The notes below the pieces were generated by a model. The model was not told the DNA's origin, did not search any database, and was given only the letters and a program-made list of their open reading frames with translations. A stretch of DNA of 59,265 nt from Candidatus Saccharibacteria bacterium RIFCSPHIGHO2_12_FULL_47_16b (lineage in GTDB: Bacteria > Patescibacteriota > Saccharimonadia > Saccharimonadales > UBA10212). Positions 734 through 58,529 of this stretch are shown one piece after another (position 1 is the first letter of the stretch; every line of letters starts with the position of its first letter). The position numbers and the translations under genes were made by a program. The stretch lies in assembly GCA_001790525.1 (NCBI GenBank), contig MGCU01000025.1, positions 14,576-73,840 on the forward strand, read 5' to 3'.

Positions 734-1870
734 ATGGCAAAAAGGGATTATTACGAAATATTGGGGGTGAATAAGTCAGCTAGTGCTGACGAGATTAAAA
801 AAGCTTACCGGCGGTTGGCGGTAGAGCACCATCCGGACCGCGGTGGCAATGAGGAAAAATTCAAAGAAGTCAATGAAGCCTATGAGATCTTAAAAGATAG
901 TTCCAAGCGCCAGCGCTACGACCAGTTCGGCCATGCCGGTGTTGGTACCAGCGCTGCTTCTGACGGAGGATTCGGTGGTTTTGGGCCCTTCGACTTCGCT
1001 CAGGGTAAACAGGAATTTCATTTTGATTTTGGCGATCTAGGTTTGGGCGACATTCTCGGCAGTTTCTTTGGCGGCGGCCCCTCGACAGGCTCGGGGTCCC
1101 GCCGTGCTCGGCGGGGCCGCGACATGGAAACCGATGTGGAAATTTCTTTCGAGGAAGCCGTTTTCGGCACTAAGACCGAGCTCAACCTCAACATGGAAGA
1201 TACCTGCGAGCACTGCAAGGGCACAACCGTTGAGCCGGGCTATGAACTCAAGACCTGCGAAACCTGCAAAGGCTCAGGCCAAGTTACTAACGTCATGCGC
1301 ACGATTTTTGGTAATATCCAACAAGCTGCCCCTTGCCCAAGCTGCAAAGGCAAGGGCAAAATCCCCGAAAAAGCCTGCACCGTCTGCCGCGGCAAAGGCA
1401 CGCATCGCCAACGCCAAACTATTAAACTCAAAGTTCCAGCCGGCATTGATGATGGCGCCACTATTCGCTTGCGGGAACATGGCGAGGCAATTACCGATGG
1501 TCCCAAGGGCGACCTTTACATTAATATCCGCGTCAAGCCGCACAAGCAGTTCACCCGCGAAGGCGACTTGATTCTATCCAACGAGCATATTGGCATAGTT
1601 GAAGCGGCACTGGGCACGGAAATTGATGTTGAAACAGTCGATGGCAAAGTCAAGATGAAGGTGCCGGCCGGCACCAATTCCGGTACTGATTTTAAATTGT
1701 CCGGCCATGGCGTGCCTCACCTGCAAGGCTCCGGCCGCCCCTTCGACAAAGCTCAGGGCAGGGGCGTCCACATCGTCACAGTCATCGTTGATACACCTAC
1801 TAAACTTACCAAAGAACAACAGGAACTCTTATCTCAATTCAAACAAACCAAAAAACGCGGCCTATTTTAA
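734..1870 (+). CDS. dnaJ: Molecular chaperone DnaJ
   Basis: N-terminal J domain (DYYEILGV...HHPDR), a G/F-rich linker, and four CxxCxGxG zinc-finger repeats ([32 protein letters not shown]). Confidence 0.95.
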
Positions 1871-2538
1871 TTATCGAGCAAACGCTCGTCTTGAAAAACC
1901 ACACCTATGCTTCTTAATTGATCTTTACGCGCGGCTTTGTAAGCTAACAAAGAATTATCAGCACGTCTCATAAGATCGCCCGGGAGGTCTCCAGGCATAA
2001 GCATAGCCATACCGACGCCGGCACCTACATATAAATCTTCCGGTAAACCCAACTTTCTTATAGCCGCTTCGGTAATATATTTAACCAAACTCCCAGTTTC
2101 CTCTAAAAGCTGGTCTGAGGAGATTCCCTCAATAGGCCTAAAACCTGGCATAACTAAGCAGAGTTCATCTCCATGAAGTCGAGCAGCCAAATCCCCGTCG
2201 TTTTCAAATAACTTTAGCGTCTCAGCGGCTGTCCGGATGACTTTATTGCCTTCTTGATGATCGAAGTTGTCATTAACCCGCTTAAGCCCATCGATATCGA
2301 CAAAAATGATAGCTATAGGCTCTTGGTTTTGATGAGCGATTTCTACTAATGCCGATAGTTTCTCGTCAAAAGCTCTCCGGTTAGCCAAGCCAGTTAAATC
2401 ATCGGTATAAGCTTTCTTATGACGATCATCAACTAGTTCAAATAACTCATTTCGCTCTTGTACCAATTCCAAAATGCGGCGTAGGGCTTGCCTATGTCTT
2501 GATTCAATATCAGATGAGGTTTTCTCACAAGAGGCCAT
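1867..2538 (-). CDS. GGDEF-domain protein with degenerate active-site motif (HGDEL)
   Basis: [16 protein letters not shown] ... [13 protein letters not shown] ... [12 protein letters not shown] is a diguanylate-cyclase fold. The signature GG(D/E)EF reads HGDEL. A coiled-coil N-terminus is present and no sensor domain. Confidence 0.8.
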
Positions 2539-2645
2539 AGGAAGTATATTATTCTATAAAATGCAGTAATTATCAAGGCAGTTGTGTTTATTAACCGTGC
2601 TTACTAAAATGCTAGTAAATGCATAAACATAACCAAAAGGGCTTT

Positions 2646-2718
2646 ACCCAGCACCTAGTCTCCGAGATTATCCGCCGTTGGCGGATGCGTGCGAAGCACT
2701 CGGAGCTAAGTGCTGGGT
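2646..2718 (+). ncRNA. Long-hairpin element H1 (unclassified structured element)
   Basis: ACCCAGCAC-C-TAG-T-CTCCGAG [32 nt containing CCGCC-GTT-GGCGG] CTCGGAG-CTA-A-GTGCTGGGT, giving about 19 bp of stem. It has the same ACCCA...GGGT ends as H2 and H3. Confidence 0.45.
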
Positions 2719-2830
2719 TTATACCCATGATAATCATGATTATTCTGCTGATTATTGTTTTCTTTTGGTTTGTTTACCGCCGAGTGGCCGGCAGCGGCTA
2801 ACACCTCTTATTGCGCATCCAAATTAGGTT

Positions 2831-2900
2831 ACCCAACGTACCAGAAAGCCTCGGTCCTTTAAGACGAGAATGATTCGTATCATGGCTTTCGGTACGGGGT
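2831..2900 (+). ncRNA. Long-hairpin element H2 (unclassified structured element)
   Basis: ACCC-AA-CGTACC-A-GAAAGCC [33 nt] GGCTTTC-GGTACG-GGGT. It is near-identical in stem and flanks to H3 on the opposite strand, with one compensatory pair change. Confidence 0.55.
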
Positions 2901-2967
2901 TCCGCCTCCCTCTCTCAGCCGAAAAGAAATTCTAGACTTTAGCCCGCGGAGACTTCACAATGAGCTG

Positions 2968-4329
2968 ATGAAAGTCAGCTTTAAGAAGTCACTGAAGTTA
3001 CTGGGCGTTGGCATCAGCCCTTTTTCCAGACTAGGACCACAGCAGTGGTTTGATGATTATAAAATCGCGGCCTATTACGGCTGGGACATTGCCGATCAAG
3101 GCGCTCCAGCGGTTGAATCCTTAGCCAGCCTCGGCATTGAGCTGCCTCGTCTGAATAGTCAAAGCCTACTCAATAACGCTAATTTTCAGCAGCAGCTGGT
3201 AGATGAATATAAAGATCACCACGTTTTAACATACAAGCCGCTTGGTTTAAAGATTCCACCGCCTCTCCAAAAGGCCACTTTTAAACTTTTAGGAACGAAT
3301 CTATCGTGCCCCTTTTATGAAAACAAGGCCTTGTTCCGGCAAGAGTTTGGCAAGCTGTTGCCATTTCCGCCTTTTAAAATTAAAAGGCTGTCCGAAATCG
3401 GGAGCTTGGCTGATATTCAAAGCAGTAGCGAACCACTGATACTTCAGCATGAGACAATGAGCGGCGGTAGAGGCACATTTTTAATTAATCAGGAAAGTGA
3501 CTTGAATGAAGCACTAGGGGTTTTTAGATTAAATCGGCCAAAAAATCCTAAAATTGTTATCTCTCAATATATCGACTCAGCTGCCGAACGAAGCTTGCAA
3601 TGTTGCGTGACCAAATATGACACACTGATTGGTCCGGTGCAAAAGCAGATTGTTAATGCCCCGGAATTACTGAACCCACAAAATCTGGCCACTGAAAAAT
3701 TCACTGGTGCCGAAATTTCTTATGGACTTGGTATGGAGCCGCTGCACAAAGAGATGACAAAGCTCGCCAAAGTCGTTGGCGATAAACTCGCTAGTACAGG
3801 CTACCATGGAATCTTTGGACTGGATTTCCTAGTAGATAAAGCCGGCCACCTATATTTGCTGGAAATCAACCAACGTTTAACTGGCGTGACGCCACTTTTG
3901 ACCATGCTTTATCGACCCACGCAAGATATCCCATTTTTATTACTACACATTCTAGAACTAAGCGGTCTCGATTACACAATAGACGATTTTTCGGTTGACT
4001 TAGTGCCAGCTCAAGGCAGCCTGATGATATTCCATTCTTTATCAACCAACACCGGTCTAATCAAAAAAACTCCAAGTTCGGGGATATATTCGTTTCAATC
4101 TAACGAGCTGTCTTTTATCAAGAGTGGCTATCAATTGAGTCGGGAAGAAAATCAACTTTTAGTTCAAAGAATTGTTCCGCTTGGCACCAAAATTAAGCCT
4201 GGGTCTAAAATTGCAGCGCTCTACAGCAGACAATCGGTTTTGGATCATCGAGACAGTTTAGCTCCAGCCAAATCTTTGATCGATGCTCTTTATAATCAAT
4301 TCGATATCCAGCCGGCACATATTGATTAA
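2968..4329 (+). CDS. ATP-grasp domain protein (unknown ligase)
   Basis: C-terminal half shows the ATP-grasp core (...YHGIFGLDFLVDKAGHLYLLEINQRLTG...). It is the first gene of the cluster with the RimB-like protease and rimK. Confidence 0.7.
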   Translation: MKVSFKKSLKLLGVGISPFSRLGPQQWFDDYKIAAYYGWDIADQGAPAVESLASLGIELPRLNSQSLLNNANFQQQLVDEYKDHHVLTYKPLGLKIPPPLQKATFKLLGTNLSCPFYENKALFRQEFGKLLPFPPFKIKRLSEIGSLADIQSSSEPLILQHETMSGGRGTFLINQESDLNEALGVFRLNRPKNPKIVISQYIDSAAERSLQCCVTKYDTLIGPVQKQIVNAPELLNPQNLATEKFTGAEISYGLGMEPLHKEMTKLAKVVGDKLASTGYHGIFGLDFLVDKAGHLYLLEINQRLTGVTPLLTMLYRPTQDIPFLLLHILELSGLDYTIDDFSVDLVPAQGSLMIFHSLSTNTGLIKKTPSSGIYSFQSNELSFIKSGYQLSREENQLLVQRIVPLGTKIKPGSKIAALYSRQSVLDHRDSLAPAKSLIDALYNQFDIQPAHID

Positions 4330-6170: not shown

Positions 6171-6228
6171 CAGCCCAGATAAGACTTCCTATAATTAGAG
6201 GGTATCTGATCCATAATCAGAGAACGCC

Positions 6229-6266
6229 ATGTCCATAATTACGACATATGTCGTAATTATGGACAT
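6229..6266. repeat. 38-bp perfect palindrome P1 (family of four)
   Basis: ATGTCCATAATTACGACAT|ATGTCGTAATTATGGACAT. Pairing extends by GCC/GGC to 6226-6269. Confidence 0.9.
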
Positions 6267-6312
6267 GGCTGCCAAAGCCAGATAGACGGGGCAGGCATGC
6301 TAAAATTGGCGC

Positions 6313-10035: not shown

Positions 10036-10059
10036 CCATTCCAAGGAGGCTCCTTGGAA
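10036..10059. repeat. Left flanking hairpin of the Y1-transposase unit
   Basis: CCAT-TCCAAGGAG-g-CTCCTTGGA-A (TCCAAGGAG pairs with CTCCTTGGA). Starts at the first nt after the ruvC stop. Confidence 0.85.
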
Positions 10060-10671
10060 TTATGTGTCCGCTAGCTGAGATTTTACTTCATCAATGACAC
10101 GTTTATGATCTTCATAATTGGCAACAAAACTTTGGTAATCATCCCCTTCAAAAAGATCCAGTATCCGCTGAGGATTTAACCAACCAGCACTTCTAGTTTC
10201 TAAATAGTAGGGAAGGCTTGACCACTCATATTGTCTGTAATTAGGAGGGTTTAAATGAAGGTAACGCGATATGTGTTGCAGATACTCATCCCTGGTAATG
10301 AGAGAAGCTTTAAATCGATCTTGAAAGAGAGGGCCTGAACGACTGTATTTTTTATTAAAGAAACCTGTATAAGAAGTACAGAGACCACTAAGAAGTCTCG
10401 TCATAGCTCTTGAATCTTTTTGATACAGCAGAAGATGGAAATGATTTGGCATGAGACAGAATGCTGACAACTCTATTCTCTTATGCAGCCATTCGTATTC
10501 TCTTCCTTTATTATCCTTGACTGGTGTTTTATCAAGATACCTTTTCAATAAACTAAGAAATACTGCATAGTCTCTATCTTGTAAAAAAATCCTTCGCTTA
10601 TTAACACCACGGTTATAGACGTGATAGAAACTATCCTCAAGATAAATTTTCTCGAGATTGCGACTTGGCAT
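10060..10671 (-). CDS. IS200-like / REP-associated tyrosine transposase (Y1, HUH) family protein
   Basis: FYHVYNRGVNKRRIF ... FCLMPNHFHLLLYQ (HUH motif = HFH) ... GPLFQDRFKAS ... ISRYLHLNP (catalytic Tyr region). Confidence 0.8.
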   Translation of the reverse strand: MPSRNLEKIYLEDSFYHVYNRGVNKRRIFLQDRDYAVFLSLLKRYLDKTPVKDNKGREYEWLHKRIELSAFCLMPNHFHLLLYQKDSRAMTRLLSGLCTSYTGFFNKKYSRSGPLFQDRFKASLITRDEYLQHISRYLHLNPPNYRQYEWSSLPYYLETRSAGWLNPQRILDLFEGDDYQSFVANYEDHKRVIDEVKSQLADT

Positions 10672-10696
10672 AGAAGAATTTTAAACCATATTCCCC

Positions 10697-10720
10697 ACCA
10701 TTCCAAGGAGGCTCCTTGGA
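10697..10720. repeat. Right flanking hairpin of the Y1-transposase unit
   Basis: Identical 24-mer CCATTCCAAGGAGGCTCCTTGGAA. Confidence 0.85.
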
Positions 10721-10747
10721 AACAGGATTTGATGGGATAATAGAATA

Positions 10748-11320
10748 ATGATTGTTACATTGGAAGGTACGATTGCCGAAAAAATCGGACAGGCCGTAAT
10801 TTTGGATGTTGGCGGTGTGGGTTATGGTCTGCTGGTCAGTTTCGAAGATTTTGGGGCTCTAAAAGTCGGTGCTAAAGCCAAACTTTACGTTCATGAATCA
10901 ATTCGCGATAATGCTTTTGATTTATTTGGTTTCAGAACCGAAGAATCAAAAAGACTATTTGAGCAATTGTTGTCAGTTAAAGGTATTGGCCCGAGGATGG
11001 CACTAGCAATTTTAAGCGTTGCCTCAATCGAGCACGTCCGCCAGGCGATAGCCGGTGGCGACGTTAAGTTCATTTCACAGGCCAAAGGCGTCGGCCGTAA
11101 AGCCGCCGAACGCGTAGTAGTTGACCTGAAAGATAAGGTTGGTTTGCCGGCTGCCGAGCAAGCCACCGAATTTTTAACGACCATGGCTGATCCGGGTGAT
11201 GAAGCCTTGCAAGGCCTAGTGGCGCTGGGCTACTCTGTCCAAGATGCCGCCGAAGCCCTCAAAAAAGTTGATAAAAAACTGCCGGCCGCCGAGCGCATCA
11301 AACAAGCCCTTAAAGCTTAA
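10748..11320 (+). CDS. ruvA: Holliday junction branch migration protein RuvA
   Basis: MIVTLEGTI...GVGYGLLVS... then helix-hairpin-helix (LLSVKGIGPRMALAIL, AKGVGRKAAERVV) and the C-terminal domain III. Confidence 0.9.
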   Translation: MIVTLEGTIAEKIGQAVILDVGGVGYGLLVSFEDFGALKVGAKAKLYVHESIRDNAFDLFGFRTEESKRLFEQLLSVKGIGPRMALAILSVASIEHVRQAIAGGDVKFISQAKGVGRKAAERVVVDLKDKVGLPAAEQATEFLTTMADPGDEALQGLVALGYSVQDAAEALKKVDKKLPAAERIKQALKA

Positions 11321-12486: not shown

Positions 12487-12524
12487 ATGTCCAGAAAAAG
12501 AACATATGTCGTAATTATGGACAT
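12487..12524. repeat. 38-bp palindrome family copy P2 (left arm degenerate)
   Basis: ATGTCCAGAAAAAGAACAT|ATGTCGTAATTATGGACAT. The right half is identical to P1. Lies in the carA-carB spacer. Confidence 0.8.
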
Positions 12525-12544
12525 GGGTTTTGGGAAACTGAGCG

Positions 12545-15815: not shown

Positions 15816-15853
15816 ACGTCCATAATTCGAACATATGTCATAATTATGGACAT
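15816..15853. repeat. 38-bp palindrome family copy P3
   Basis: ACGTCCATAATTCGAACAT|ATGTCATAATTATGGACAT, 56 nt downstream of the carB stop. Confidence 0.8.
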
Positions 15854-15899
15854 GTGCGTATCTGTTTTTAGAGAAAGATTTTTGTAGAGATTCGCTAGA

Positions 15900-55908: not shown

Positions 55909-56523
55909 ATGCTAAAAACAAAAATTAGGTTTGAGATACCGGCCGAGAAGTGGATTCTTTGGCGTTACGGCCATGGTCGTCTGGCTGATGCCTGGATTAT
56001 AGCTCATGTCGCTACCGGAATTGCCGGCGGCTGGCTTGGCGTAATGAGTGGCTGGCGGTCGGCCGTATTTTTATCATTAGCTATTCTTGTTTATTTTGTG
56101 TACGAACTTTGGGAAGCCTATATTGGCATTGTTGAGGATGTTGAAAATGCCTTAGCCGATGTGGCGGCCGGCGCTCTGGGCACGGTTTTAGTTTTGTGGT
56201 TGGATAAAGTCTTTAATTTCGATTTCGCAAGTGCTGTCGTTTTATTTGTAATATCAACGGTGGCGGCTTTGGCGCTTTTGTTTATCGGCTACCGCGTCTA
56301 TTTAGGTCGAGTGGTTAGGAAAGAAGTTGTCCGGATTTATCCCGATTGGCAGACGCCAAGCGGCCAGACCAAAATTATCAAAGATCAAATTTTATTTTTT
56401 GGCTTGTCTTTGAGCGGTACTTTTGTGCCAATTATTGTTATTGGCTTCGGCACTGCAGCCGGCTGGCTTTGGGCGATTTTGAGCACTGGCTTCATTTTCT
56501 TAGTAAGAGCCCAAGTCAAGTGA
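55909..56523 (+). CDS. Hypothetical integral membrane protein
   Basis: 204 aa with about five hydrophobic spans. Confidence 0.5.
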   Translation: MLKTKIRFEIPAEKWILWRYGHGRLADAWIIAHVATGIAGGWLGVMSGWRSAVFLSLAILVYFVYELWEAYIGIVEDVENALADVAAGALGTVLVLWLDKVFNFDFASAVVLFVISTVAALALLFIGYRVYLGRVVRKEVVRIYPDWQTPSGQTKIIKDQILFFGLSLSGTFVPIIVIGFGTAAGWLWAILSTGFIFLVRAQVK

Positions 56524-56578
56524 AGCGCTCCACGGACTCAAGTCCGTTACTTCAGCTTGGCGGATTTCGGAGCGCGGA

Positions 56579-56647
56579 ACCCCGCACCGAAAGCCAGAAT
56601 TAGCACTGATACCTGAACTAAAGTTCGAGGCTTTCTGGTGCGTGGGT
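56579..56647 (-). ncRNA. Long-hairpin element H3 (same family as H2)
   Basis: Minus strand: TT-ACCC-A-CGCACC-A-GAAAGCC [33 nt] GGCTTTC-GGTGCG-GGGT-TCCGC. Lies 28 nt downstream of the stop of 56675..57511 and is followed by a second hairpin GCGCTCC...GGAGCGC. Confidence 0.55.
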
Positions 56648-56674
56648 AAGCTCACCACTCGCTAAGCTGTAAGA

Positions 56675-58464: not shown

Positions 58465-58502
58465 GTGTCCACAATTACGACATATGTTGAATTTATGGAC
58501 AC
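58465..58502. repeat. 38-bp palindrome family copy P4 (diverged)
   Basis: GTGTCCACAATTACGACAT|ATGTTGAATTTATGGACAC, between convergent genes. Confidence 0.7.
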
Positions 58503-58529
58503 GCAAGATACATACAGAAATTATGGAGT

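Follow-up and report, generated by a model that had tools for sequence, protein, structure and literature searches.

A 59,265-nt stretch of the genome of Candidatus Saccharibacteria bacterium RIFCSPHIGHO2_12_FULL_47_16b (hereafter, the window) carries two long hairpins, H2 and H3, that lie on opposite strands and share nearly all of their stem sequence. The question they raise is what kind of genetic element they represent. A preliminary description of the DNA left three candidates, namely a small structured RNA family, a MITE with terminal inverted repeats, and a hairpin recognized by a recombinase or transposase, and it placed a third hairpin, H1, in the same family. Judged by comparison with related sequences, H2 and H3 are inserted mobile DNA of a known kind and not a new RNA class.

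H2 and H3 as parts of a longer element

Checked against the letters of the window, both hairpins read as originally described: the apical segment is 33 nt in each, the bulged A lies on the same arm, and the sole difference between the stems is a compensated change of T:A to C:G (CGTACC/GGTACG in H2, CGCACC/GGTGCG in H3). The pattern CCAGAAAGCC-N33-GGCTTTCGG has exactly 2 matches in the window, at 2841-2892 (+) and 56587-56638 (-), and 0 in 100 shuffles, and as RNA the hairpins fold far better than shuffled sequences (z -3.9 to -4.8). When H2 and H3 were aligned, similarity ran about 55 nt past the hairpin, to ...GGAG(N2-3)CTTCAC. The hairpin first noticed is therefore only part of the feature, roughly the left 60% of each 126-nt element.

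We built a covariance model of the family (R1) and used it to score the window as well as the genome and metagenome loci described below (designated by L numbers). R1 was significant on both H2 (match span 2827-2960, +) and H3 (56518-56652, -), in agreement with the proposal that they are copies of one repeated element, and found nothing else significant in the window. Across 44 sequences of the family, the pair that differs between H2 and H3 is C:G in 23, U:A in 13 and A:U in 2. The boundaries of H2 were fixed by comparison with empty sites, the segment being exactly absent from the orthologous site in two relatives (L071 and L073), and those of H3 were set by homology to H2 (Table 1). The window also holds a second repeat family, unrelated in sequence to H1-H3, which is a 40-44-nt near-perfect palindrome (GCCATGTCCATAATTACGACAT / ATGTCGTAATTATGGACATGGC).

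Table 1. Positions in the window of H1, of H2 and H3 with their component parts, and of two other features. IP_L and IP_R, left and right subterminal hairpins; P1 and P3, long-range helices; G_L and G_R, guides; C_L and C_R, cleavage sites.
Feature	Position	Strand	Remarks
H1	2648-2724 (about)	+	77-nt three-way hairpin after TTAC 2644-2647; boundaries uncertain by ~3 nt
H2 element	2833-2958	+	126 nt, complete, right hairpin decayed; R1 81.3 bits, E = 3e-19
H2 TTAC target / C_L	2829-2832	+	Flank, not element; abuts the empty-site junction in L071
H2 G_L	2845-2848	+	AAAG, directly 5' of left inner hairpin; read from sequence
H2 IP_L	2849-2868	+	CCTCGGTC-CTTTAA-GACGAG; 6/6 pairs covary across 44 members
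H2 P1 (long hairpin)	2831-2900	+	Arms 2831-2850 and 2884-2900; encloses G_L and IP_L; from folds and outer-pair covariation
H2 P3	2904-2909 with 2948-2953	+	GCCTCC with GGAGAC, one mismatch; from alignments
H2 G_R-like	2926-2929	+	GAAA, inside P3
H2 degenerate right hairpin	2930-2949	+	Inside P3
H2 C_R	2955-2958	+	TCAC, last bases of the element; empty-site junction directly after; conserved at family right end
H3 element	56520-56645	-	126 nt, complete, well preserved; R1 105.7 bits, E = 2e-25
H3 TTAC	56646-56649	-	
H3 G_L	56631-56634	-	AAAG
H3 IP_L	56612-56630	-	
H3 P1 3' arm	56579-56595	-	
H3 P3	56569-56575 with 56525-56531	-	
H3 G_R	56550-56553	-	GAAG
H3 IP_R	56532-56547	-	
H3 C_R	56520-56523	-	TCAC
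RAYT-like Y1 (HUH) gene	10060-10671	-	203 aa, between ruvC and ruvA; Y1_Tnp match
Second-family palindrome	6226-6269, 12487-12526, 15816-15855, 58465-58504		Four intergenic copies

Empty sites and spread of the family

One of the relatives, a member of the Saccharibacteria (L071), encodes an ATP-grasp protein 73% identical to that of the window in the same gene order, and its spacer between the GGDEF and ATP-grasp genes is about 205 nt shorter. With ^ marking the junction, the H2 site reads AGGTTAC^AATTAGCTGATG in this relative, with nothing between, and AGGTTAC^(126 nt)^AATGAGCTGATG in the window; with longer flanks, the two sequences are ...CATCCAAGTTAGGTTAC^AATTAGCTGATGAAAG and ...CATCCAAATTAGGTTAC^(2833-2958)^AATGAGCTGATGAAAG. 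A third copy in the same genome, on the same contig just upstream of the window (L001 1864-1998), gave a comparable result, the relative reading GGCTTTTAC^AACTGAC and the occupied site GGCTTTCAT...(element)...GCGCTTCAC^AACTGAC. As both empty sites read TTAC followed by the right flank, the insertions lie exactly 3' of TTAC and the target was not duplicated. TTAC or a one-base variant precedes most family copies, and R1 found no family copy in 49 kb of the relative. Presence and absence, a check proposed at the outset, was accordingly seen between relatives but not within the population: contigs of the same strain at the neighbour of H3 were all occupied, with no polymorphism among them. The genome fragment holding three copies has a weak GC skew.

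The ends of the element, CCNCGCACC... and ...GGAGCTTCAC, are not inverted repeats. We rejected a MITE of the terminal-inverted-repeat type because the long hairpin has an internal 3' arm, beyond which the element runs a further 55 nt, and neither empty site shows a target duplication.

The family membership of H1 was not supported by R1, which scores it at only 5.5 bits (E = 8). Only the termini are shared: variants such as L056 are similar to H1 in the first ~15 nt (TTAC^CCAGCACCTAG) and in the strand that closes it (GTGCTGGGTTT). Inspection of its sequence found no AAAG with a hairpin, no GAAG with a hairpin and TCAC, and no right-end domain. H1 is absent from the orthologous site in relatives L071 and L073 and folds with z = -7 to -8; no second H1-like copy was found in any fetched locus, and the viral contigs searched contained no copy of H1 or of the H2/H3 family. 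We regard H1 as an insertion as well, probably a derivative of uncertain status that would have kept only the outer stem and termini of the family.

Both complete elements lie close to genes. The end of H3 (the TCA of its TCAC) is also the TGA stop of a convergent membrane-protein ORF at 55909-56523 (+), and the insertion appears to have landed in the 3' end of the gene, which it now terminates. H2, for its part, ends 9 nt upstream of the ATP-grasp start codon. Within 2948-2970, the sequence ATG AGC TGA (2961-2969) makes up a mini-ORF of two codons, with a GGAG from the right end of H2 placed 9 nt before it and with a stop that overlaps the start of the ATP-grasp gene (TGATG); the insertion-free relative has ATT for the mini-ORF's ATG. 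In this position, H2 may influence how the rimK-cluster gene is translated.

Scanning one genome per species with the pattern ACCAGAAAGCC-N25-40-GGCTTTCGGT identified 67 loci, compared with ~4 estimated by chance, and ~57 of these share the full flanks and are family members. Their hosts are mostly Patescibacteria/CPR (Parcubacteria, Saccharibacteria, Woese-, Gottesman-, Chisholm-, Uhr-, Moran- and Kerfeldbacteria); Omnitrophota are also common hosts, and single bins represent Elusimicrobia, Aminicenantes, Planctomycetia and 'Gammaproteobacteria'. A scan of JGI metagenomes added at least 117 matching stretches, and the family model confirmed 76 of the 80 loci examined. The elements are 126-135 nt long. 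Several genomes carry 3-4 near-identical copies each, with unrelated flanks and sharp boundaries (for example L007/L023/L068, L028/L051/L062 and L004/L045); the MAGs under GenBank MHXH01, JACPKF01, JBAZKH01, JAVHRF01 and JAQUOM01 hold such near-identical copies. Relative to genes, copies occur in every orientation; some lie in 5' regions, some between genes that converge, and one apparently within an ORF. There was no recurrent neighbour gene, all-against-all clustering of ORFs at the genome loci yielding only spurious read-through ORFs.

Some loci hold unusual arrangements. A divergent copy (46 bits) at L029 1292-1423 lies in a pheT-like ORF (927-3296, -) whose frame it leaves open. The 12-kb metagenome contig L128 has three copies (1062-1195, 3090-3230 and 10710-10850), two of which belong to a 'retargeted' TTAT/TCAT sub-lineage and two of which closely flank a gene for a TrwB/TraG-like type IV coupling protein. 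Partial copies, either divergent or comprising the right end only, occur 10-100 nt from full copies (L039 1957-2053, L007 7785-7879), and L028 has full copies at 2698-2824 and 3846-3980, ~1 kb from each other on either side of a tRNA gene. Such clustering suggests that the elements, whose ends are TTCAC or TTTAC-like, may attract further insertions, and it echoes the tandem of H1 and H2. A search for autonomous copies through left-end-only matches in 58 genome and 80 metagenome loci returned short decayed copies only (L122, L038/L088, L056).

Helices, guides and cleavage sites

The left half of the family consensus is TTAC ^ CC(N)CGCACC-A-G AAAG [CCNNNN-loop4-NNNNGG] GGATGAAKGG...(variable)...; the centre continues with GGCTTTC-GGTGCGGGG TTYC GCTCC ...(variable, A-rich)..., and the right end is GAAG [CCNNNN-loop4-NNNNGG] AGC(N0-2) T TCAC ^. 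There are 10-11 nt between TTAC and the AAAG that adjoins the left hairpin, and 4-6 nt between the right hairpin, itself adjoining GAAG, and TCAC; an autonomous partner would be expected to lie between TTAC^CCNCGCACCAGAAAGCC... and ...GAAG-hairpin-NNNN-TCAC^. Four helices are formed: P1; IP_L, inside P1; IP_R; and P3, in which bases after P1 pair with bases between IP_R and the right end.

Overall, 93.6% of cells were paired, compared with 80.4% in shuffles, and 164 cells held double changes, compared with 54 in shuffles and 15-41 with a slid partner. The preliminary description had called for compensatory changes beyond the single one separating H2 from H3; they were found across 44 family members, and every pair of IP_L and IP_R has them. 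Within one element, the stems and loops of IP_L and IP_R are alike, as would be expected were both bound by a single protein, and the loops match (TCCT with TCCT, GTAA with GTAA, TTTA with TTGA). The inner P1 stem was fixed by the search pattern, for which reason variation of the left guide was barely sampled, and its compensation is seen in variants found by the model: GAAGGCC/GGCCTTC (L028), and GAAAACC/GGTTTTC and GAAGACC/GGTCTTC (L128). The length of P3 is too variable for column-wise scoring, so its covariation was tabulated by eye. Its forms include GCTCC/GGAGC, GCGCTCC/GGAGCGC, GCCCC/GGGGC, GCCTCC/GGAGGC, GGACTC/GAGTCC, AGTCTC/GAGACT, AGCCTT/AAGGCT, GCACC/GGTGC and GCCTTC/GAAGGC.

When P1 and P3 are both formed, no more than a 4-nt connector (TTYC) separates the two cleavage sites. 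In P1 the AAAG of the left guide is paired with CTTT, and the AC of TTAC is sequestered as well; P1 must therefore open for cleavage, and P1 and the active cleavage conformation are mutually exclusive. Possible roles of P1 and P3 are to bring the ends together, to occlude the guide, or to act at the level of RNA. As single-stranded DNA, H3 folds into P1 and P3 around IP_R (z = -4.9), and from its sequence it looks intact; the whole H2 element folds with z = -2.25. H2 is probably immobile, a fossil, because its IP_R is decayed and its guide carries a G-to-A change (GAAA).

This layout invites comparison with IS608, in which C_L is TTAC, 19 nt 5' of the foot of IP_L, and C_R is TCAA, 10 nt 3' of the foot of IP_R; the guides G_L (AAAG) and G_R (GAAT) lie directly 5' of each hairpin foot, and guide position 1 pairs with cleavage-site position 2, and guide position 2 with cleavage-site position 1 (PMC3201880, PMC5934647). 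We extended this rule by analogy, pairing position 4 with position 4 and leaving position 3 non-canonical. Like IS608, the family inserts 3' of TTAC without duplication; has an identical left guide, AAAG, directly 5' of a subterminal hairpin (PMC5934647); has a right guide 5' of a second, similar hairpin, with C_R 8-10 nt after the foot of IP_R; and follows the same position-by-position rule of guide/cleavage pairing. Unlike IS608, it has neither tnpA nor tnpB and spans only 126-135 nt, its TTAC lies 14-15 nt and not 19 nt from the left hairpin, and its hairpins are mostly perfect. Its right pair is GAAG/TCAC, whereas that of IS608 is GAAT/TCAA, the difference at position 4 being compensated. 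It also has two extra covarying long-range helices, P1 and P3, the former of which buries the left guide.

Natural variation follows the pairing rule. In the metagenome alignment, 90.5% of right-end guide-cleavage cells pair, and the pair of positions 2 and 1 is A:T in 56 and G:C in 6. There were 7 guide-cleavage double changes, compared with 2.1 in shuffles, and 0 of 500 shuffles reached 7. The right guides GGTG and GGAG go with CCAC as C_R (L006, L014, L021, L155, L151, L137, L083, L129 and L128), a combination present in 11 copies from at least two lineages. In L128:10710, G_R GATA accompanies TCAT and G_L AAAA accompanies the left flank TTAT, and in L128:3090 G_L AAGA accompanies the left flank TAAT. 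Exceptions occur in several copies as G:T wobbles or single guide changes, with GAAA, GATA or AAAG as the guide for TCAC; we assume that such code-breaking copies are decayed.

Relation to IS200/IS605 elements and competing explanations

We put a probability of about 80% on H2 and H3 being PATE-like, gene-less miniature derivatives of an IS608-like IS200/IS605 element, mobilized by a Y1 transposase that acts in trans. The assignment is based on the insertion 3' of a specific tetranucleotide, TTAC, without target duplication at two empty sites; on the presence, at both ends and on one strand, of covarying subterminal hairpins that resemble each other, with no terminal inverted repeats; on guides 5' of both hairpin feet that pair with the cleavage sites, double changes included; and on the precedent of PATEs, which are documented gene-less derivatives of IS200/IS605 elements (PMC10055086). 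We infer that a Y1 (HUH) TnpA supplied in trans would move the element as single-stranded DNA, and may do so at present. The transposase would bind the two similar small top-strand hairpins, IP_L and IP_R, while the guides AAAG (left) and GAAG (right) would pair with TTAC, the left flank and target, and with TCAC, the end of the element. Excision would leave the donor resealed, with TTAC joined to the right flank, and integration would follow 3' of another TTAC, leaving neither a duplication nor inverted terminal repeats. P1 and P3 would fold the strand and thereby bring its two ends next to each other. Of the three initial candidates, the recombinase or transposase recognition hairpin came closest to this scheme, but the hairpins recognized would be IP_L and IP_R, and IP_R lies in the part outside the H2/H3 hairpin as first delimited.

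The PATEs of Haloquadratum walsbyi and those of Geobacillus stearothermophilus related to ISGst are likewise short, non-coding and multi-copy, keep only IS200/IS605-type ends and are presumed to be mobilized in trans (PMC10055086; see also PMC3119063). The present family differs from them in its lineage and hosts (CPR/Patescibacteria, Omnitrophota and others), in its very high sequence conservation across phyla, and in showing no sign of an encoded guide RNA. It differs also in its lack of an autonomous partner: neither an autonomous copy nor a cognate tnpA was found within ~4 kb of ~135 copies, and spot checks of L018, L029 and L128 revealed no transposase. As far as Rfam and our literature search show, the family is new as described, and the kind of mobile element is known.

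The IS608 model does not account for the strong conservation and covariation of P1 and P3, which counts against our assignment, as do the missing tnpA near the copies and the guides that break the code. RNA-based explanations draw on the same two helices. In the window, Rfam matches were limited to six tRNAs, and both element sites and a canonical member gave no match at the gathering threshold and only chance-level ones at E<=10, in keeping with the initial impression that no known RNA family corresponds. A free-standing, multi-copy gene family for a small structured RNA, not mobile DNA, would account for the extensive covariation in four helices and for GA-rich junction motifs (GGAUGAAKGG ... 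GAAG) that resemble RNA tertiary motifs, and the lack of an Rfam match can be listed in its support. We nevertheless consider it highly improbable, as it is largely refuted by the precise presence and absence at TTAC in a syntenic relative, and as the covariation of guides with cleavage sites has no RNA rationale. Conservation begins 0-3 nt before the structure, therefore no promoter is shared; promoter and terminator scans at the elements gave no signal, and the variety of orientations and locations, including the apparent insertion within an ORF, also speaks against such a gene. A transcriptional terminator of the intrinsic type was dropped, there being no T-run after the stems, as was an integron attC site, for there is no array and no integrase and the R-box consensus is not matched at both ends. 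The element might instead be mobilized as we propose while P1 and P3 are kept because its transcript works as RNA, whether as an omega-RNA-like scaffold for a TnpB or IscB acting in trans, for which TTAC would be the adjacent motif and the right flank the guide, or as a structured regulatory RNA like the IS200 5' tnpA RNA. Such dual use seems to us improbable, if less so than a free-standing RNA. P1 and P3 covary well beyond the needs of the IS608 DNA mechanism, and G:U pairs exceed A:C mismatches, which would mark the opposite strand, but G:T wobbles fit single-stranded DNA equally. According to PMC10055086, PATEs 'often encode omega RNAs' that act in trans, and the left end of IS200 yields a highly structured small RNA (PMC12594629); both systems offer transposon ends with conserved multi-helix top-strand folds, which the family resembles. 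It differs from them in having neither tnpA nor tnpB linked to it, in matching no Rfam family, and in being known here from DNA sequence. Neither the genes called in the window nor those beside any copy include a TnpB or IscB, no promoter is shared, and 126 nt leaves little room for two transposon ends and a guide scaffold together.

The RAYT-like gene, the only Y1 gene of the window, offers a candidate mobilizer, the elements then being REP-like. Its product matches Y1_Tnp and resembles REP-associated tyrosine transposases, RAYTs are related to IS200/IS605 TnpA (PMC8266576), and the relative L071 lacks both this gene between ruvC and ruvA and the three insertions; the ruvC-ruvA intergenic sequences could not be aligned. 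REPs, too, are repeated extragenic hairpins tied to Y1 HUH enzymes. However, they are single 20-40-nt hairpins usually clustered around a RAYT gene or matching its flanks, whereas the family has two hairpins with guide and cleavage tetranucleotides and precise insertion at TTAC. On either side of the gene stands a 21-nt palindrome of its own (TTCCAAGGAG-S-CTCCTTGGAA, S = G/C; window 10036-10721), and gene, position and palindrome recur at 66-70% identity in three other genomes (L200-L202, Saccharibacteria/Patescibacteria). This flanking sequence (TTCCAAGGAGSCTCCTTGGAA) is unlike IP_L and IP_R, and ~57 kb around the homologues in those genomes holds no family copy; the RAYT-like gene is therefore not supported as the mobilizer. 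In addition, the NCBIfam score of the protein, which belongs to a family of >3400 members, is below the cutoff (39 against 80 bits). We regard mobilization by this protein as very doubtful; to judge from the sequence, the gene seems to encode a Y1 enzyme that has been domesticated, is kept by vertical descent and has a cognate hairpin to itself.

Returning to the IS200/IS605 derivative, we think it unlikely, though somewhat less so than the alternatives above, that P1, by burying the left guide, and P3, by tying the right-end linker to the centre, make the element more than a stripped transposon, namely a single strand that folds by itself and has its own function. It could possibly be a self-synapsing, guide-masking mini-transposon of single-stranded DNA that spreads across phyla on a borrowed transposase, or its transcript could possibly serve CPR and Omnitrophota bacteria in trans, as a regulator or as the scaffold of a guide RNA.

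With more than 130 copies found by R1 or motif, what had been an unexplained 'hairpin RNA' becomes an annotatable mobile element, which should prevent the misannotation of its copies as RNAs and explains small indels between CPR strains. The family carries the DNA-guide code of IS608 into uncultured phyla, and its natural retargeted variants (TTAC to TTAT; TCAC to CCAC or TCAT) corroborate that code outside the model system. The near-identical core shared by Patescibacteria, Omnitrophota, Elusimicrobia and other bins suggests a mobilome common to ultra-small groundwater bacteria.
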